Assembly: GCA_965223265.1 (NCBI GenBank)
Contig: OZ244999.1
Location: forward strand, 5,216,001-5,280,000
DNA length: 64,000 nucleotides
Direction: 5' to 3'
From: Planctomycetota bacterium
GTDB taxonomy: Bacteria > Planctomycetota > UBA8108 > SXIK01
Part shown: positions 1 to 9,059 of the stretch, in pieces
How the letters are laid out: each line of letters starts with the position of its first letter
How positions within the stretch are numbered: the stretch's first letter is position 1
Notes under the pieces: model-generated
What the model saw: the letters and a program-made list of their open reading frames with translations, nothing else
Told to the model about the DNA's origin: nothing
The model's database searches: none
Program-made: the position numbers and the translations under genes

Positions 1-407
1 GGAACCTGGCCGACCTCCGCGCCGGTCTCGTCGAGATGTTGAGGGTCCTGAAGCCCCACGGCCAGGTGGCGATCCTGGAGTTTTCGACGCCACGCTCGCC
101 GGCCTTTCGCGGTCTCTACAAGTTTTACTTTCGCCGCTTGCTGCCGAAACTGGGCAGCTGGATTTCACGCACGGAGTGTGGCAAAAGTGCGTATGAGTAC
201 CTCCCAGCCTCCGTGGCGGAGTTCCCATCTGCTCCAGCGTTGTCGGATCTCATGAAGAGCTGTGGATACGAAGACGTTCGATACCACACCTTGACGTTTG
301 GCATCACGACACTCCACCTCGCCTGCAGGCCGCCCGCTTCGACGGCAGCAGACGATCTCGAGACAGGGACACGCACAATCGCGCCGGTAGAGAGCGACAC
401 GCAATGA
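1..407 (+). CDS. ubiE: UbiE/MenG family quinone C-methyltransferase, 5'-truncated by the window edge
   Basis: The frame is open from the window start (NLADLRAGLVEMLRVLKPHGQVAILEFS). The AYEYLPASVAEFP and LTFGITTLH motifs are typical of the UbiE C-terminus. Confidence 0.9.
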   Translation, partial: NLADLRAGLVEMLRVLKPHGQVAILEFSTPRSPAFRGLYKFYFRRLLPKLGSWISRTECGKSAYEYLPASVAEFPSAPALSDLMKSCGYEDVRYHTLTFGITTLHLACRPPASTAADDLETGTRTIAPVESDTQ

Positions 408-1107: not shown

Positions 1108-1959
1108 ATGTTCAGAAGAATCTCCACGTTCTGCGAATCGATCAAGATCTCCCATTCGGTTTTCGCTCTGCCGTTCGCTGTTGCGGCTGCGTTCCTCGCC
1201 AGCTCGGGCTTGCCACCGGGGCTGCTCCTCATCAAGATCATCCTGGCGGTCGTCTTCGCACGTACGTCCGCAATGGCCTTCAATCGCTGGTGCGACGCGC
1301 GAATCGATGCTCTCAATCCCAGAACAGAAAACCGCGCTGTCGTTACTGGCGAGCTCACTGGCCGCTTCATGCTCGGCGCGGCGATCTGCAGCTCGCTCGC
1401 TTTTGTCGCGGTCGCCGCAACGATCAATCCGCTCGCGTTGATCCTGTCGCCCGTCGCGCTGGGAATCCTCTTGGGATATTCCTACACGAAACGCTTTACG
1501 CCGCTGTCGCACGTCGTGCTCGGCGTTGCGCTTGGGCTCTCCCCCCTCGGTGCATGGATCGCCGTTCGCGGCGAATTCGCCCTCGTGCCGACCCTGCTTG
1601 GTCTCGCCGTGCTCCTCTGGACCGCGGGGTTCGATATCATTTACGCCTGTCAAGACGAGGCGTTCGATCGCCAGCACGGGCTTTTCTCGATTCCACAGAC
1701 GCTAGGTGTCGGCGCGGCGCTTTGGGTGACGCGGGTGTTCCATCTCATCGCCGTCGCGCTGCTTGCCATCGTCGGTTGGCAAGCGCAGCTTGGCGTGATC
1801 TACGCCTCAGGAGTCGCTATGGTCGCGATCATTCTCGCGTACGAGAACTCGCTCGTCAGAGCTGAGGATTTGTCGCGCGTCAACCTTGCATTCTTCACGC
1901 TAAACGGCATCGTCAGCCTCGTTTTTATGGCGGCAGTGATCCTTCAAATCGTGCTATAA
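1108..1959 (+). CDS. ubiA: UbiA-like prenyltransferase (MqnP type, futalosine menaquinone pathway)
   Basis: IKISHSVFALPFA, ARTSAMAFNRWCDARIDALNPRT, YSYTKRFT, GFDIIYACQD, VNLAFFTLNG; multiple TM helices. Confidence 0.92.
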   Translation: MFRRISTFCESIKISHSVFALPFAVAAAFLASSGLPPGLLLIKIILAVVFARTSAMAFNRWCDARIDALNPRTENRAVVTGELTGRFMLGAAICSSLAFVAVAATINPLALILSPVALGILLGYSYTKRFTPLSHVVLGVALGLSPLGAWIAVRGEFALVPTLLGLAVLLWTAGFDIIYACQDEAFDRQHGLFSIPQTLGVGAALWVTRVFHLIAVALLAIVGWQAQLGVIYASGVAMVAIILAYENSLVRAEDLSRVNLAFFTLNGIVSLVFMAAVILQIVL

Positions 1960-2104
1960 TGACCTAAATCCGGGCGTTGCACGCGCTCAACTCTTGTCAG
2001 GCTTTGGGGTCTGTCGACTGCCCATGCATTCCTGCTCTAGAGTAGACACTCTCAGGACGGTGGGTAAGGGGCCTGACACGTTGTTTCCGAGCGTTTCCTT
2101 GACG

Positions 2105-2228
2105 CAACCTATTGAGAAGGTCGTTTGCCCCGAGACCGGGTCTGTGCGTCACAGACCGTGCCCATCTTCATCGGTCGGTCTGTGAAGATGAGCGACACAC
2201 CTTGGCGCGAGCACTTTTCAATAGGCTG
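2105..2228. mobile_element. MITE-like non-coding element, copy 1
   Basis: Imperfect terminal inverted repeats CAACCTATTGAGAAG ... CTTTTCAATAGGCTG with internal hairpins. Its reverse complement aligns with 26608-26707. Confidence 0.55.
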
Positions 2229-2283
2229 TTAACCAAAAACTTTTCACACGAGCAACGCGAAACCGCGGCGCTCACGGGAAGCT

Positions 2284-4206
2284 ATGGCAACTCAGCAGGG
2301 ACTAACTCTCGACCAATATCTTCGTGCCAAAGGACCGCTACCGCCCCTGAAGGCGGCTCGCGTGATGCGGGACATCGCCGAACAGGCGCAAGTGGGCACT
2401 GATTTTTGCGCCATCTCACCGGCGCGCATCGCGATTTCGAAGTCAGGCGTTCGCCTTCTCGCGGCTCCGAACCCAACGAAGCCGGTCATCGTTCAACGAG
2501 TCAACTACGTCGCTCCTGAGACGATTCGCCACGGCACCCAGGACGAATCAAGCCTCCTCTACTCCCTCGGCTGCACCTTGTTCGAACTCGTCGCCGGTAC
2601 AGCGCCCTTCGCTAGCGAGAATCCCAAAGCGACTCTCAAAGCACACCTGACGGCGGTTCCGCCGAGCCTCGAGCATGCCGCACCAGGAACTCCGCCGCGT
2701 CTCTTGGCAGTGGTCAACGCGCTCCTGCAACGAGATCCGACGCGGCGACCGAATTCCCTAGCAGAGGTCGCCCAGGCGTTGGTCAACATCGATTCGGACG
2801 CCCCCCCGATCGCGAGCGTCCCCACGCGAACTTCCACTGCCGCCAGCCGGCGACCGACTTCCAGATCCAGATTGGCCGCGCGGCGTCGTCGCGAAGAAGA
2901 CGACGACGGCAAGCGGCCGACGCGAAAGAAGAAGAGTTATGGTTTTACGATCGCGGGTGCGTTGATCGGGTTGGTCATAGCTCTCTTCCTGGTCCCATGG
3001 GAGATCGCGCGACAGGACAGGCAAACACTCACGAAGCGTGACGCAAACCGCAGCAAGTTGGAAGTCGAACGCAGCGAGCGAAAAGAGGCGCTGCGGGCGG
3101 AAATCGGCGCTGCGCAGGCCGAAGTCGATCGTCTGATACAAACTCGCGGCTCTGACGCACAAGCGATTGGCTACCACCTCGCTGAGCTCGTCCATGCACG
3201 TGGAGCTGAACGCCTGGGCGAACTCTACGTTGATCTCGCGATGACAGGCGGAGCGAAGAAAGGCGGAGAAGTCGACCCAGCGTACGAAGAGCTGCGAGCG
3301 AAGATCAGCGAGCTTCTGGCAGAGAATCGACACGGTGACGCTCTCAAGCAACTCGCGGATGCAGGGCGAACGTTTCCAGGTCGCACTGCCGACATTGAAC
3401 GACAGATCCTTGAGGTCTCCGAGCAGCTAACGAAGCAGTGGAATCGCGACAAAAACGCGATTGAGGCCATGCTGCGGCGAGAGCGTTTCAATCAAGCCCT
3501 CAGCCTGATCGCGCAGGTCCACGTCTACGGCGACGCCCCCATTCGGCGAGAGCTCGAGACCTACGAAGATCAGGCGCGGCGGCTCAAGGCAGAGGCTCAG
3601 GCAGAGGTCGAAGCGGAGATCATGAGAGCCAAGCGACGACGGTCGGACAAAGAGGACGACGAAGAAGACGAAGATGAAGAGGACGACGACGAGGAAGAGG
3701 ACGAAGAAGACGAAGAGGACGACTGGGGCGATGACGACGACGAGGAAGAAGACGAAGAGGAAGAAGACGAAGAGGACGACTGGGGCGATGACGACGACGA
3801 GGAAGAGGACGACGACGACTGGGGCGATGACGACGAGGAAGAAGACGAGGACGACGAAGAAGACGAAGAAGACGACTGGGGCGATGACGACGACGAGGAC
3901 GAAGAAGACGAGGACGAAGAAGACGAAGAAGACGAAGAGGAAGAAGACGAAGAGGACGACTGGGGCGATGACGACGACGAGGAAGAAGACGAAGAAGACG
4001 ACTGGGGCGATGACGACGACGAAGACGACGAAGACGAAGAAGACGACTGGGGCGATGACGACGAAGAAGACGAAGAGGACGACTGGGGCGATGACGACGA
4101 CGAGGAAGAAGACGAGGACGACGATGACTGGGACGATGACGAAGAGGACGACGATGAGGAGGAGGATGAAGAGGATGACGACGAGGACGAGGACGACGAC
4201 TGGTGA
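2284..4206 (+). CDS. Membrane pseudokinase: Hanks-type C-lobe, TM helix, helical domain and a very long D/E-Trp tail
   Basis: YVAPE and LYSLGCTLFELVAGTAPF are present; the N-lobe, HRD and DFG are absent. TM helix GFTIAGALIGLVIALFLVPW follows RRKKK. Confidence 0.8.
   Translation: MATQQGLTLDQYLRAKGPLPPLKAARVMRDIAEQAQVGTDFCAISPARIAISKSGVRLLAAPNPTKPVIVQRVNYVAPETIRHGTQDESSLLYSLGCTLFELVAGTAPFASENPKATLKAHLTAVPPSLEHAAPGTPPRLLAVVNALLQRDPTRRPNSLAEVAQALVNIDSDAPPIASVPTRTSTAASRRPTSRSRLAARRRREEDDDGKRPTRKKKSYGFTIAGALIGLVIALFLVPWEIARQDRQTLTKRDANRSKLEVERSERKEALRAEIGAAQAEVDRLIQTRGSDAQAIGYHLAELVHARGAERLGELYVDLAMTGGAKKGGEVDPAYEELRAKISELLAENRHGDALKQLADAGRTFPGRTADIERQILEVSEQLTKQWNRDKNAIEAMLRRERFNQALSLIAQVHVYGDAPIRRELETYEDQARRLKAEAQAEVEAEIMRAKRRRSDKEDDEEDEDEEDDDEEEDEEDEEDDWGDDDDEEEDEEEEDEEDDWGDDDDEEEDDDDWGDDDEEEDEDDEEDEEDDWGDDDDEDEEDEDEEDEEDEEEEDEEDDWGDDDDEEEDEEDDWGDDDDEDDEDEEDDWGDDDEEDEEDDWGDDDDEEEDEDDDDWDDDEEDDDEEEDEEDDDEDEDDDW
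3646..4203 (+). repeat. Coding low-complexity repeat (D/E)n-DDWG
   Basis: GAC/GAA/GAG/GAT runs with recurring GACGACTGGGGCGATGAC; 8 x DDWG, one DDWD and a terminal DDW. Confidence 0.95.
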
Positions 4207-5114
4207 AACGCTCTGAGCCGATCCCGCCATCGAGGGACGACGACACTCCCTGGCTCAGCGAAATGGTGGACGAAGAGCTTCTGGTTCTCTTTTCCGAGGA
4301 CACAGAAGACATCGCGCGGGGCGTCCTTCATCTTCTCCGCTTGGCGACGATCCGCCCCGATGTCGAAGAGCAGCTCGTCGATCTGATCGACGCGGCGCTC
4401 GAACATTCGAACGACGATGCGCAAGCCGCCACGTGGGCAACGGTGATTCTGGCGGAACTCGGATCCTCTCTTGGTATCGGAGTGATCCAGAGAGCGCTGC
4501 TGGCAGAAAACGACGAGACGCTCCAAAACACTGCGGCGGTCGCTCTTCTGCGCCTCGGAAGCCGCGGCCTCGACGCTGTCATGGAGACGATCGAGGAAAC
4601 CCAAAGCCCCACGTTCAACCGCCACGCCTACCGCGTCCTCGCCAACACCGGTGTCCTTGAGGATCCAGACACGACGCAGCGAGTGACGGAATTCCTCGAA
4701 GAACGAGTGCCGATCGAGCGCGGCCTACCGCCCCAAGACCGCGTGCTCGAAGAACTCGCAGATGCCCTGGCGAGGGTGGGCGCGCGTGAGAACATTAGCG
4801 TCCTCAAGGAGATCCTCGCCGAGGAATTTCAAGGCTCGAACTGCGCCCTTGAGGACTCGATCGCCATGCTCGAGGAAAACGACAGCGGCGATCCGATCGG
4901 CGCCCACACTCCACCGTGGGAGGAGCTGTACGGTTGGATGTTCGAACGTGCCGCACCGTCGGCTCTGCTTGAGCGCGATGCTGGGGGGGACATCACGATC
5001 GACCTGCCGTTCGGAGAAACTACGGACCCATCGTCTACCTCACCCGAGCACCGCTCGTCGTTTCTACGAGGCTTGAACGTCGAACCAAGAGAGAAGCCAG
5101 ACGAAGAGACATGA
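4203..5114 (+). CDS. Acidic HEAT-repeat-like helical protein
   Basis: Helical repeats such as ATVILAELG, AAVALLRLG and LADALARVG. The GTGA start/stop overlap with the upstream gene implies translational coupling. Confidence 0.65.
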   Translation: MKRSEPIPPSRDDDTPWLSEMVDEELLVLFSEDTEDIARGVLHLLRLATIRPDVEEQLVDLIDAALEHSNDDAQAATWATVILAELGSSLGIGVIQRALLAENDETLQNTAAVALLRLGSRGLDAVMETIEETQSPTFNRHAYRVLANTGVLEDPDTTQRVTEFLEERVPIERGLPPQDRVLEELADALARVGARENISVLKEILAEEFQGSNCALEDSIAMLEENDSGDPIGAHTPPWEELYGWMFERAAPSALLERDAGGDITIDLPFGETTDPSSTSPEHRSSFLRGLNVEPREKPDEET

Positions 5115-5262
5115 GCGGTCGTGGCCGCGCGCTTGGCGCCTCGCGCCGAAAGGCAGCCGGGACGAGTCCCCTGCTCCCTTCAGAGGCATGCCGGACGTCC
5201 TGCCGATCGCTCAAACTCGAAGGCGCCGAGCAGAGCGTTGAACAGCCCTTTCCAAGAGGCTG

Positions 5263-7035
5263 TTAGGTAAAATCGTCTTCCTCGTCATCGTCGTCCTCGT
5301 AATCGAGCGGCGCCAGCGAACGGAGGACAGCTTTGACGATATGTTTGAGCAACAGCAGGTTCTCTGGATGCGCTCGCAACATGTCCCAGCGGAAGTTCCA
5401 AGCTCGTTCCGATTGCATGGCAGCTCCCATGCTCGAAACCGAAGTGTTCGGCCACTTCTCCTTGAGGTCCAGCCTGAGATTCCATGCTGCCGCGCTATCG
5501 ATGCCGCTGATCGAATCAAGAACTTCTTTGGCGTAGTTCTTCGCCGCGTCTCGAACCTTCCAAGCACGCGGGTCGTTCGAGCGTCCGATGGTCTGGACGA
5601 CGATTTTCGGCGCTCGTACGACGTGCTCTTCGCGTAGGGCCCAGGCTCGGTCTGAGCTCAGCCCACGAAGACTCATTAGCACCCACGGCAGGTACTCAGC
5701 CGACAAACGATCGCGCCACTCCCAGGCACGTTCGGTGTCGATTCCCGCGAGGCTTTCGAGTATGGCGGGAAAATGTGGGAAGTGCGCCCTCTTTTCCCGC
5801 ATCGCCCACGCCTCTTCGGTGTCGAGACCGCGGAGACTGATCAGCACCTCGCGCATGGCCGATTTGCCGATCATCCGGCGGATGTCCCACGCGTGCTCGG
5901 AGTCTGAACCGCGCACAGTCAAGGCCACATACTCGGGGACGACTTGAGCAAGCTCGGTTCTGAGCGCCATCGCTTCAGGAGACTGCCCCGTCAAACTTCG
6001 TGCCACATACGCCGGTTCGATTTGTTTCAGCTTCTCGCGAAGCTCGTAAGACTCTGGCGTCCGCACCCCACGCAGGCCGTAGGCGACAACACCTGGTTCG
6101 TCGTCAATGATCGCGAGACGAAGCTCATGGGTCTCGGGCGTGTTCAAACCGATCAGATGCAACCCTACCTGACTCGGGCTCGTCGCGACCCGTTGGCGAA
6201 GCTCTTCGAAGAACGCGGTGTACGCTGTCTCCCGACGCTCGACAGGATCCTCGATACTGAGAAAACGCGCCACGGCTTCAGCGAGACGCCCGCGCGGTTT
6301 CGACTGTGACGCGCTCGAAAAGTCCACCCATCGCGGGTTGGTCAACCTCTTGTAACCCTTGGACTCAAGAACCTGCGCGACGCGATCAAAAATCCTCTGC
6401 AGCGACTCTTCGATCGTGCTATTTGCGTTGTCGATCACAACCCAGCGTTCTGGGTCCTCTTGAGCAAGCTTCAGAAACCCGTTGCGCATCTCCTCGCGAA
6501 AACCGATCCCCATGAGCCCCTTGCGGCCGAAATCTCCAAGCTTTCGATGATCCCGGATTTTTTGAACTCGTTTGCGCATCCGCGACGTCAGAGGGTCAAC
6601 GTCACTATACACGACGAGGTCAGGCCAAAGCCCGCGTGCGGCGACTTCCACGACCGCATCCACCTGGTCGCGTGGCACGCCACGCGCGTGATGACTATGG
6701 GTGATCGCGGAGTACAGATAGCGGTCACTGAACACGATGTTTCCCGGCTTGAGCTTTGGCCGGATGAACTCGTCGATCATCTGAGTGTCACGCGCGACGT
6801 AGAGCAGCAACTCGGTTGCATCGGACATGCGGAGGAATCGCGGGTCGCGCGTCAGAAGTCGAATTTCCTTCGAAATCTCGGAGCGAAAAACGCCTCCACT
6901 TCGCGCGTGGTGAACCGGGATCCCCTGCTCCTCCAAAACCGCCGCAAGACGATTCGAAAGCGTCGTCTTGCCGCTACCGTCGATTCCTTCGAAGTCGATG
7001 AAGACTGGGGCGGGTCCGGCTTCACACTGATCCAT
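5263..7035 (-). CDS. tmk: Thymidylate kinase-family domain fused to ~10 helical repeats of ~27 aa
   Basis: FIDFEGIDGSGKTT P-loop, ELLLYVAR, DRYLYS and PDL motifs. C-terminal repeats LxGxDSxxAWxLR. The start could extend to 7086. Confidence 0.85.
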   Translation of the reverse strand: MDQCEAGPAPVFIDFEGIDGSGKTTLSNRLAAVLEEQGIPVHHARSGGVFRSEISKEIRLLTRDPRFLRMSDATELLLYVARDTQMIDEFIRPKLKPGNIVFSDRYLYSAITHSHHARGVPRDQVDAVVEVAARGLWPDLVVYSDVDPLTSRMRKRVQKIRDHRKLGDFGRKGLMGIGFREEMRNGFLKLAQEDPERWVVIDNANSTIEESLQRIFDRVAQVLESKGYKRLTNPRWVDFSSASQSKPRGRLAEAVARFLSIEDPVERRETAYTAFFEELRQRVATSPSQVGLHLIGLNTPETHELRLAIIDDEPGVVAYGLRGVRTPESYELREKLKQIEPAYVARSLTGQSPEAMALRTELAQVVPEYVALTVRGSDSEHAWDIRRMIGKSAMREVLISLRGLDTEEAWAMREKRAHFPHFPAILESLAGIDTERAWEWRDRLSAEYLPWVLMSLRGLSSDRAWALREEHVVRAPKIVVQTIGRSNDPRAWKVRDAAKNYAKEVLDSISGIDSAAAWNLRLDLKEKWPNTSVSSMGAAMQSERAWNFRWDMLRAHPENLLLLKHIVKAVLRSLAPLDYEDDDDEEDDFT

Positions 7036-7241
7036 GAGATTCGCTCGCGTTGCGCCAAAAGGTGGGGTAACCGCCCGCAGCTCCACTGTCGTAGCACGAC
7101 ACCAGACGAGCGCGCCGCGACTAACGGATGGGCAGTTCGCGCTCGGCCCGAGGAGACGCCTGCGACGAGGGAGGTGGAACGCGCGACTCTCCCTCGGCGA
7201 GGTTGTTCACGAAGTCGTCGCCTCGCAAGAAAAGACCACCC

Positions 7242-7373: not shown

Positions 7374-9059
7374 TCAGAAAAGAATGAGGAGCTCGACCAT
7401 CAACTCGTCGTTGTCAACGTCCCGAGGTCCCACGCCACCACCCGTGTCCTCGAAGTTGAACATGTACTCAGCCTTCAAGAGAATCTCGCCTGTCACTTCG
7501 GTGATCATGCCGACGACCAGACGCTCCCGCTCCCACGTAGCTGGTAGCGTCGCGAGCGGAGCAAGGCTCGTGTCCAGCTCGCCGTAGCGAACGAGCGGTT
7601 CGAAACTGCGTAGGTAGCGGTCGGCGATCAATCGGCCAACAGAGAATCGGTAGGAGCTTTGGACATACCAGCCTTCGCGCTCCAGCTGACCATCGTCACC
7701 TCGAATCCATTGTCCCTGGACTCGAAGCCCGTCGCGATTCCTGGTCTTGATCGCGGACCCAAAGAGTGTTCGTGCCGGCAGGAAGTATTCAGCGCCGACC
7801 CCGTACCGGATGCTCTTGCGGGATGTCGAATCGCCATACCCCGCCAAAGCAACGCCAACATTGTCGCGCAGCGTCAGGTCATTTTGTAAGAAACTGAGCG
7901 ACGTGTCGTCGAGTCGATCATGGTAGAAGAAACCCAGCAGGCTGAACTCACCGAGTGAAGCGAACTCACGACGGTATCGCAGACCGGCTCCGAGCTCGCT
8001 GACCGAAATGTCATCATCGAGATTTCGGTCATCTTGGATGATGTCGTTGAGGGCCGCTCGGTCGAAACCGATCTCGTTGTTGTCGAGCGAATTCCCCGTG
8101 CCGACCGAGAGGAAAAGAGTCAACTCACCTGCGTTCGCACCAAAATCGAAGGCTCCGTACGACTCGCGGAATTCCTCGCGGTAGCTGTCGCTGGAAACCT
8201 CGAGGTCCCGCCCTTCCGTTCCCGCTTCCCGCATGATGGAGTCGTCATCGAGGGGCAGCTCGTCGCCGAGACCGAGATCCAGCTCCGTCGCGCCAGCGTC
8301 AGGCGAGCTCAGATCGTCCTGCCGTCCGTCCTTGCTCGATTTCTTCGATTTCTTCTTCGACTTCTTCCCCGATTTCTTTTTCTTCTTGGTTTTCTTCTTC
8401 TTCGCTCCCTCGACCTTCGGCTTCGGCGGCCCTTGGGCTCTGCCGAATTTGAGCGCCCACACCGCGGCGACCGACTCGTCACGCCAGAATGCGTTGCCGA
8501 TCAGGGGATATGTCTTCGTGCGCCGATTCGGGCGGATGAAGCGATCGTCGAGTCCGAGTCGAAAGTCCGATTCGAACCACCATGCTGGGTCCGCTCGATG
8601 GCGAACCGTGATCTCTTTGAGCGTAAAGTTCTGCCCGGTCGGCTTGAGGTCGATCTGCGCACGCGTCGAGAAATGACGATTCAGCTTGAGCCGCGGCTCC
8701 AGACGTAAACGGTTAATCTCAAAGCGAGGATCAGGCTCGTCGGTCGGCCCAACGATCGGATCACCCTCGTTTTCGCTGTCTATGAAAAGTAATTCCGCCT
8801 TTCCTCCCAGCCGAAACTCAACGCCTTCGCCGACAGTGAGAATCCCTTCGGAAAAACCTCCCCCCTTCTTCTCCTTGTCCTCCAGCTTGTCGAGCTGTTT
8901 CTCGAGGTCGTTGATCCGCTCCTCGAGCTCTTCGATTCGCTGATGCGGCGACGGCACTCCAGTCTGGGCGTTGGCAGCAGTGCTCCAGACGAGCGCCAGG
9001 ACGAGCGCGCCCAATGCCGCGAACGAGATAGTCGTGTGTTTCTGGGAACAGGATCTCAT
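7374..9059 (-). CDS. Putative outer-membrane beta-barrel (porin-like) protein
   Basis: Signal peptide (ANA-Q), N-terminal coiled coil, alternating beta-strand pattern, GWYVQSSYRF, C-terminal ELLILF. Confidence 0.7.
   Translation of the reverse strand: MRSCSQKHTTISFAALGALVLALVWSTAANAQTGVPSPHQRIEELEERINDLEKQLDKLEDKEKKGGGFSEGILTVGEGVEFRLGGKAELLFIDSENEGDPIVGPTDEPDPRFEINRLRLEPRLKLNRHFSTRAQIDLKPTGQNFTLKEITVRHRADPAWWFESDFRLGLDDRFIRPNRRTKTYPLIGNAFWRDESVAAVWALKFGRAQGPPKPKVEGAKKKKTKKKKKSGKKSKKKSKKSSKDGRQDDLSSPDAGATELDLGLGDELPLDDDSIMREAGTEGRDLEVSSDSYREEFRESYGAFDFGANAGELTLFLSVGTGNSLDNNEIGFDRAALNDIIQDDRNLDDDISVSELGAGLRYRREFASLGEFSLLGFFYHDRLDDTSLSFLQNDLTLRDNVGVALAGYGDSTSRKSIRYGVGAEYFLPARTLFGSAIKTRNRDGLRVQGQWIRGDDGQLEREGWYVQSSYRFSVGRLIADRYLRSFEPLVRYGELDTSLAPLATLPATWERERLVVGMITEVTGEILLKAEYMFNFEDTGGGVGPRDVDNDELMVELLILF

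Follow-up and report, generated by a model that had tools for sequence, protein, structure and literature searches.

A conserved membrane protein built on a kinase C-lobe without an N-lobe in an uncultured planctomycete order

Introduction

Pseudokinases are usually recognized as full folds with mutated catalytic residues. A gene in the genome of a Planctomycetota bacterium raises the question of whether a protein kinase can also be pared down to its C-lobe and kept as a gene in its own right, in which case a C-lobe-only family would represent a second route to the pseudokinase state. The gene, here called the half-kinase, lies in a 64,000-nucleotide (nt) window of contig OZ244999.1 (the whole stretch of DNA that was analyzed; positions are window positions unless stated otherwise) and belongs to a source genome of one contig and 9.18 Mb (G000; related genomes are G001 and so on). 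A first-pass annotation of the window had proposed that this open reading frame (ORF) encodes a catalytically dead kinase remnant with a transmembrane (TM) helix and a polyanionic tail punctuated by tryptophan, coupled to a HEAT-like protein encoded immediately downstream. Here, we ask whether the half-kinase is a conserved gene or the debris of one, from what it derives, how it is placed in the membrane, and what its tail and its neighbors may do. The lineage is uncultured, and any function assigned would annotate a gene that is present across the whole order.

Results

The gene and the parts of its product are as follows.

2284..4206, + strand: half-kinase gene, 640 amino acids (aa), with C-lobe, linker, TM helix, ectodomain, and acidic tail (ORF listing)
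2284..2793, + strand: kinase C-lobe only (KIND-like), residues 1-170, predicted to be cytoplasmic (Pfam, AlphaFold2, Foldseek)
2794..2934, + strand: disordered basic juxtamembrane linker, residues 171-217 (predicted local distance difference test [pLDDT] scores, charge)
2935..3000, + strand: single TM helix with GxxxG, residues 218-239 (hydropathy)
3001..3645, + strand: all-helical ectodomain with TPR-like hairpins and a YGD motif, residues 240-454 (AlphaFold2, colinearity)
3646..4203, + strand: polyanionic tail, residues 455-640 (composition, motifs, repeats)

An in-frame TAA at 2230-2232 lies 17 codons upstream of the half-kinase ATG with no start codon between them, and a start at 2284 is further backed by the invariance of M1, L9, and L13 in an alignment of 11 orthologues (alignment A1). 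The recorded gene call begins at M28 (613 aa) and omits the region at 2284-2364; because residues 1-27 are conserved in orthologues, that start is probably too short and position 2284 the better choice. The stop of the half-kinase and the start of the HEAT-like gene share a GTGA overlap (ORFs 2284..4206 and 4203..5114). On reanalysis, the first-pass description of the ORF, the overlap, the C-lobe, the TM segment, and the tail proved accurate. Rfam gave no match at E ≤ 1 across 1500-5600.

The Pfam Pkinase profile (PF00069) matches residues 68-157 only, at profile positions 156-253 of 263 (E = 2.5e-9; 37.4 bits versus a cut-off of 31.7), and the half-kinase thus has no complete bilobal domain (positions about 1-263). 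What it retains is a homologous C-lobe fold, with the conserved DxxS.LYSLG stretch and the subdomain IX Asp present and with P78-E79 of APE, D87, Y93-S94-x-G96, and R155 of subdomain XI invariant across A1. The HRD and DFG aspartates are missing in all 11 orthologues, where HRD is replaced by ISPARI or HPGRI and DFG by LLA, LLP, or xxP, and the region of the VAIK Lys is gone together with the N-lobe. In a relative with a kinase domain at residues 141-389, the counterpart of residue 1 is position 215. A six-frame Pkinase search of the whole genome gave 81 matches, among which the half-kinase locus yields the C-lobe piece alone, with no N-lobe match near it in any frame. Residues 1-455 were modeled with AlphaFold2 (AF2) at a mean pLDDT of 77.7, and most values over residues 11-170 are 83-96 (one block, 71); the top Foldseek match of the model in the Protein Data Bank (PDB) is the kinase domain of Mycobacterium tuberculosis PknB (169-181 columns, 27-29% identity, E = 3.7e-10). 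Profile, alignment, and model comparisons together show the predicted N-terminal domain to be a kinase C-lobe without an N-lobe and without catalytic residues. Both the retained scaffold (a Pfam match above cut-off, with the APE and YSLG positions invariant) and the catalytic death claimed in the first-pass annotation (both aspartates missing throughout A1) are thereby borne out, and the protein would be unable to phosphorylate.

The truncated form is shared across the order. When residues 1-450 were used as the query, matches from query residues 1-5 were obtained in 18 of the 20 other order genomes, in open frames of 206-735 aa without stops; the remaining two are G015, which holds a contig-cut C-terminal part only, and G005, which gave no match. 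Whether homologues are N-lobe-less too was one of the checks proposed in the first-pass annotation, and in the order they are, their matches beginning at the hinge. The 10 loci in which ORFs were inspected, from three families, all have the same start point, with the shared motif M-x(3-5)-G-[ILV]-T-L-[DE]-x-Y-L-x-x-K-G-P-L-P, and this point falls after the hinge of a full kinase relative (MEYVEG, followed by ETLQDKLKRRGQL). Among the best 150 hits of the A1 profile in a set of 1.84 billion cluster representatives, 26 aligned position 1 to residue 1, and no whole-profile hit among those 150 carried an N-terminal extension of more than 11 residues. A word-index search with residues 1-455 found ordinary kinases only, besides the half-kinase itself, which is no proof of absence. 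Because the truncation point is shared in the order, structural residues are invariant, and synteny is kept (see below), the half-kinase does not look like a product of decay; these comparisons show a real, conserved gene for a predicted bitopic membrane protein.

Relatives outside the order point to its origin. Two sister families within the class have proteins of 799-870 aa that align colinearly with the half-kinase, beginning at APE and continuing across the basic linker, TM helix, and entire ectodomain as far as a conserved YGD/YAD motif. One of them, P0038 (870 aa), is 27% identical to the half-kinase over 385 residues (E = 2e-21) and contains, at residues 141-389, a full Pkinase domain (5.6e-54) that includes HRDLKPANIL and DLG; HRD and DLG are intact in all five such relatives (G025 of family f4 and G029, G031, G034, and G038 of family f6). 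The match also holds in reverse and is unique: in G000, nothing but the half-kinase matches the linker-TM-ectodomain part of P0038. The C-terminal domain of these relatives (about 200 aa) gives way to the acidic tail in the half-kinase. Since the sister-family relatives share the TM helix and ectodomain and have an intact kinase, the half-kinase probably arose from a receptor Ser/Thr kinase, and under the simplest history the N-lobe and catalytic residues of a receptor-type Hanks kinase would have disappeared in the order's ancestor.

The linker has pLDDT below 50 at residues 177-218 and a net charge of about +9, and its length ranges from about 50 to 200 aa among orthologues. The hydrophobic segment that follows this basic patch, at residues 218-239, has a hydropathy of 2.36 (next-best segment, 1.34) and contains GxxxG in 30 of 30 family sequences, with G225 and G229 invariant in A1, all of which fits a genuine self-associating TM helix. 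As for orientation, the first-pass annotation had used the positive-inside rule to place the tail outside the cytoplasm. The placement remains the likely one, by way of receptor-kinase homology, but its original basis is not decisive: of 30 family members, only 16 have more K plus R in the N-terminal than in the C-terminal 15-residue flank of the TM segment, an ambiguous result. We infer that the C-lobe and linker are cytoplasmic and the ectodomain and tail periplasmic because there is a single TM segment, because the protein is homologous to and colinear with intact receptor kinases that face cytoplasmic ATP, and because the N-terminal domain (more than 200 residues) has no signal peptide.

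An AF2 model of residues 250-520 gave blocks mostly of 84-98 up to about residue 459 (one block, 56), and thus predicts an all-helical ectodomain with confidence. No PDB structure matched the ectodomain model at E ≤ 0.001 in Foldseek, where the best value was 0.18 and TPR-like folds were no more than leads, and the ESM Atlas gave scores of 0.81-0.85 with residues 250-455, a lead only. As a single-sequence query over the class, the ectodomain matched 7 of 59 genomes at E ≤ 0.001, a count that does not mean absence in the remaining genomes since the ectodomain is too divergent for such a search. The half-kinase is the sole match in G000 to its own ectodomain.

The 186-aa tail consists of 94 D, 73 E, 10 W, 8 G, and 1 K, with 167 carboxylates and a net charge of -165. 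Ten DDW motifs, eight of them in the form EEDDWGDDD, are spaced so that W recurs every 12-28 residues, and the protein ends in DDDW-stop. The model of residues 250-520 predicts the tail to be disordered (pLDDT, 45-53); the same model was used to check docking of the first DDW motifs on the ectodomain and, with the tail disordered, speaks neither for nor against it. The underlying DNA forms imperfect tandem repeats with periods of 42 and 57 and about 70% matches. Seven ORFs in the genome have at least 28 D/E in 40 aa, of which the half-kinase is the most extreme and the only W-punctuated one. In the six others, all outside the window, stretches with 28-34 D/E in 40 aa are interrupted by L, F, or Y rather than W, so that polyacidic tails dotted with hydrophobic residues are a recurrent feature of G000. 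A word-index homologue search with residues 470-640 returned only the half-kinase itself, which does not indicate absence because low complexity is filtered.

As a check on whether the tail is an artifact, Logan short-read contigs from four runs (two samples, one study; possibly the source samples, and so not independent) were compared with it. Contigs match the tail flanks up to 3729 and from 4086 onward, and exact pieces (0 differing letters) cover 3000-3774, 3777-3954, and 3966-4700; no single short-read contig of the four runs spans the tail. Contig joints that skip parts of the tail were considered as length variants and rejected as repeat or foreign artifacts, with sides of 21-29 letters and low depth. 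The content of the tail is supported by reads, and its exact length is still short of independent proof.

Across the 23 family sequences with a recognizable ectodomain end (the anchor is approximate for a few), long W-punctuated tails occur only in G000 (10 W, 86% D/E) and in G001 (protein P0041; 14 W, 72% D/E). The other 21 tails have 0-1 W, 15-118 residues, and 22-60% D/E. A Trp-punctuated polyanionic tail is consequently not a family feature, at least 10 W being found in only 2 of the 23. Judging from this survey, an acidic C-terminal tail is a family trait; an acidic amphipathic motif (DLDAELE, DLEAEFE, EIDKEFE) is found in 6 of the 23, with more visible by eye. The two long tails are built from differing repeat units. 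In G001 a 45-nt unit, present in 12.8 copies with 92% matches, encodes DDDDDWGDDDDDDSS; the Gly codon of the repeats is GGA in G001 and GGC in G000, where the 42- and 57-nt units have diverged. The DDWGDDD core is kept in both despite these differences. The polyanionic WG tail is therefore a lineage-specific amplification, in two genera, and its core motif appears to be maintained.

The half-kinase sits in a conserved neighborhood, whose other members in the window are as follows.

429-1082, + strand: UbiX-like flavoprotein (Pfam Flavoprotein, 5.8e-43)
1108-1959, + strand: UbiA-family prenyltransferase (Pfam UbiA, 2.6e-52)
4203..5114, + strand: HEAT-like repeat protein, 303 aa, GTG start (Pfam, orthologue profile)
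5263..7086, - strand: thymidylate kinase (Tmk) fused to a helical repeat region, convergent (Pfam Thymidylate_kin, 2e-24)

The HEAT-like protein scores below the cut-off against HEAT_2 when taken alone (2e-5; 25.2 bits versus 27.7). HEAT_2 is found in 12 of 14 orthologues and HEAT_PBS in 5 of 14, and the orthologue profile matches alphaRep and HEAT structures at E values of 7.7e-35 to 2.3e-11; by these matches the 303-aa neighbor is a predicted PBS-lyase-type HEAT-like repeat protein. Its N-terminal sequence has no hydrophobic signal peptide.

In 18 of 21 order genomes the HEAT-like gene is downstream of the half-kinase on the same strand (a judgment based on inspected ORFs for G000 and 9 relatives and on coordinates only for the other 8; contig breaks leave G004 and G014 undecidable), and the overall arrangement is ubiX-ubiA-half-kinase-(SNase)-HEAT-like. 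UbiX and UbiA stand directly upstream in 10 of 10 inspected loci that hold a half-kinase, and all genes of the putative operon are on one strand. Gaps range from -4 to 59 bp between the half-kinase and the next gene and from -4 (G009) to 375 bp between UbiA and the half-kinase. The pairing with the HEAT-like gene that the first-pass annotation saw in one genome is thus syntenic in the order; the functional coupling read into it is not established. One copy of the HEAT-like gene is present in each of the 21 order genomes and in 58 of the 59 class genomes, and in family f5 the gene keeps its convergent Tmk-fusion neighbor (the fusion adjoins it in the order as well) with no half-kinase beside it. 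Because it is present where the half-kinase is absent, the HEAT-like gene is not dependent on it. A complex prediction of C-lobe residues 1-175 (alignment A1) with HEAT-like residues 1-262 (alignment A2), run without controls, gave a score of 0.00 (mark, 0.32) and counts neither for nor against an interaction.

The optional gene in this arrangement encodes an SNase-like protein (PF00565, 9.4e-17), membrane-anchored with a Cys-rich C-terminus, which fills the place of the half-kinase in G005. Positions are given within each locus.

L015, 4712-5455: SNase-like gene (PF00565)
L020, 4347-5105: SNase-like gene (PF00565)
L064, 3702-4472: SNase-like gene (PF00565)

Discussion

We regard the half-kinase as very probably a conserved, N-lobe-less, dead kinase remnant in a bitopic membrane protein. 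With moderate confidence, the best explanation for the whole is that it is a dead transmembrane scaffold or pseudo-receptor derived from a receptor kinase. The mechanism that we attach to this account is tentative. The GxxxG TM helix would drive dimerization, and the protein is probably dimeric. The C-lobe, retaining the P+1/alphaF-alphaI core, would be a docking surface in the manner of KIND, with candidate partners being one of the roughly 70 kinases of the genome, substrates of those kinases, or the presumably co-transcribed HEAT-like protein. On the periplasmic side, the ectodomain and tail would bind ligands. In G000 and one sister genus, tandem duplication of a DDWGDDD-centered unit may have amplified the tail to about 190 residues with 10-14 Trp stickers, making it a potential multivalent binder of cations or cationic partners, or a polyelectrolyte brush. 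The role of the tail is lineage specific and the least certain part.

Several known systems resemble parts of this design. KIND domains (SPIRE, PTPN13, KNDC1) and the half-kinase are alike in being derived from a kinase C-lobe, with no N-lobe and no catalysis, and KIND is a protein-docking module through which SPIRE binds the FSI motif of formin (PMC11231147). The two differ in that KIND is eukaryotic and found in soluble multidomain proteins, whereas the half-kinase is membrane-anchored with an ectodomain. In sequence the half-kinase does not belong to the eukaryotic KIND family: a Pfam-A scan gave no KIND hit at E ≤ 0.1, Pfam presumably including a KIND model. Because the nearest relatives of the half-kinase are bacterial kinases, with intact ones in the same class, the resemblance to KIND is convergent and of independent origin.

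Receptor Hanks kinases of the PknB type have the layout that is predicted for the half-kinase, namely a cytoplasmic kinase-derived domain, basic disordered juxtamembrane linker, single TM helix, and extracytoplasmic domain. The half-kinase departs from them in lacking an N-lobe, the aspartates of both HRD and DFG, and an ATP site, and its ectodomain, homologous to that of the class-level relatives, is predicted to be all-helical rather than PASTA-like. The pseudokinase domain of mycobacterial MviN/MurJ is likewise dead and attached to a membrane protein, and it is regarded as a scaffold in a Ser/Thr kinase network; that domain keeps both lobes, whereas the half-kinase family has the C-lobe only, and to our knowledge bacterial pseudokinases keep both lobes. 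Eukaryotic Trp motifs include the DDW of WASP and cortactin and those of the GW182 type. Such W-acidic, GW, and WG motifs resemble the tail in placing repeated Trp in acidic disordered sequence that docks into helical-repeat domains, as with the tryptophan-acidic motifs of kinesin light chain ligands; they are cytosolic with known partners, whereas the half-kinase tail is predicted to be periplasmic and is found in two genera only.

Literature searches found no bacterial C-lobe-only kinase, KIND-like protein, or planctomycete pseudokinase of this type. In a survey of planctomycete kinases (PMC11032199), the main text has 0 occurrences of "pseudokinase," "truncated," or "C-lobe," and its supplementary domain tables might list some. 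The earlier statement that no bacterial system with such an architecture has been described agrees with these searches, and the family is conserved, unusual in architecture, and previously uncharacterized. Together with its intact-kinase relatives, the half-kinase forms a natural before-and-after pair for the role of the C-lobe in a bacterium with about 70 Ser/Thr kinases, and the tail, among the most extreme natural polyanions, offers a tractable case of multivalent disorder outside the cytoplasm.

Several observations weigh against a kinase-derived scaffold or pseudo-receptor. No partner of the C-lobe, ectodomain, or tail was identified in the analyses run. G005 keeps the neighborhood as ubiX-ubiA-SNase-HEAT-like with no half-kinase, so that the gene is dispensable there or was missed, and an SNase-like gene intervenes in three of the 18 genomes that pair the half-kinase with the HEAT-like gene (G002, G003, and G009). 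Most class genomes that have the HEAT-like gene lack the half-kinase. The W-rich tail, absent from 21 of 23 members, cannot explain the core function of the family; the flank charges alone do not fix an N-in topology; and all relatives are metagenome-assembled genomes.

An unlikely alternative for the tail is bulk periplasmic cation handling (Ca2+, Mg2+, or metal buffering, Donnan control, or mineral templating) without a specific partner. The 167 carboxylates in 186 residues, the net charge of -165, and the predicted disorder and periplasmic location would suit such a role, and Asp-rich disordered proteins bind Ca2+. Against this, the Trp-Gly core has been kept through independent repeat turnover in two genera, which suggests a specific contact; most family tails are shorter and less acidic (15-118 residues, 22-60% D/E); and no metal-related genes were seen in the conserved neighborhood.

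We consider quite unlikely a more elaborate form of the scaffold proposal, in which the half-kinase would be an independent bacterial KIND-type module, a receptor kinase stripped to its C-lobe and turned into a transmembrane adaptor. Its periplasmic WG-acidic sticker-spacer polyanion would, in the two genera that have it, form a cation-bridged brush or condensate in the periplasm, which is enlarged in planctomycetes, and ionic or envelope state would be reported via GxxxG dimerization to the kinase network and the HEAT-like partner.

It seems very unlikely that the half-kinase serves the upstream menaquinone-type UbiX-like and UbiA-like genes, for instance as a membrane assembly or regulatory subunit, the HEAT-like adjacency being incidental. 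UbiA is an integral membrane enzyme (Pfam), the pair is directly upstream on the same strand in all 10 inspected loci, and the UbiA stop and half-kinase start of G009 share 4 bp; yet UbiA and the half-kinase are 324 bp apart in the window and 375 bp apart in G001, G005 retains ubiX-ubiA without a half-kinase, the intact-kinase relatives of the sister families are not beside ubiA, and no known link of a Hanks kinase to these enzymes was found.

A highly improbable reading makes the tail cytoplasmic and its WG/DDW motifs ligands of the co-translated HEAT-like protein, analogous to Trp-motif docking in TPR, ARM, or HEAT pockets. The GTGA overlap and conserved adjacency, the peptide-binding type of fold of HEAT repeats, the binding of eukaryotic W-acidic motifs to TPR domains, and flank charges compatible with the other topology are in its favor. 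However, the one hydrophobic segment and the N-terminal kinase homology put the tail on the opposite side of the membrane from a HEAT-like protein without a signal peptide, most orthologues pair with the HEAT-like gene yet have a W-free tail, and the HEAT-like protein is kept where the half-kinase is absent.

That the gene is a decaying truncated kinase, or its tail an assembly artifact, is extremely improbable: more distant homologues are indeed intact kinases that lack the tail, none of the short-read contigs bridges it, and at least one genuinely truncated kinase exists elsewhere in the genome, but the same truncation point recurs in three families of the order and in 26 cluster representatives, structural residues are invariant, frames are open in all listed order-level matches, synteny is conserved, exact short-read pieces tile nearly the whole tail, and a W-acidic tail of equal length occurs in G001, an independent genome from a different genus. 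The outcomes that the first-pass annotation had named as fatal to its proposal did not materialize, the order homologues being N-lobe-less, the tail pieces present in reads, and the two genes syntenic.

Neighboring genes and further observations

Upstream of the UbiX-like gene, a 5'-open ORF at 3-407 (+ strand) looks by eye like the C-terminal part of a UbiE/MenG-type methyltransferase; if it is one, the cluster upstream of the half-kinase would be for quinone biosynthesis. Downstream, the helical region of the Tmk fusion is about 370 aa long with repeated AWxxR motifs, and its acidic C-terminus ends in ...DDFT, kept in most orthologues. Beyond it, at 7374-9059 (- strand), a gene that is syntenic across the order encodes an outer-membrane-barrel-like protein of 561 aa with a signal peptide. 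Residues 204-243 of this protein form a Lys-rich insert with 21 K/R in 40 aa, and 8 orthologues have no insert at that position. The Lys-rich loop was considered as a polycationic partner for the tail and rejected, since it is specific to G000 and not found in G001, which has a W-acidic tail.

Elsewhere in G000, outside the window, an ORF with a kinase N-lobe only (L145, 2964-3551, - strand; G000:C1:5693466-5694155) ends exactly at the hinge; its neighbors are an upstream extracytoplasmic function (ECF) sigma factor gene and two directly adjoining genes that are PIN-like or unknown. A split kinase made of this ORF and the half-kinase was considered and rejected: the half-kinase is without catalytic residues, and the N-lobe ORF looks like an insertion-truncated kinase. 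A second candidate pseudokinase, also outside the window (G000:C1:5414647-5416131, + strand), is a 495-aa frame with an FHA domain, a degenerate Pkinase region (163-253 only, E = 1.3e-5), and a C-terminal hydrophobic segment.

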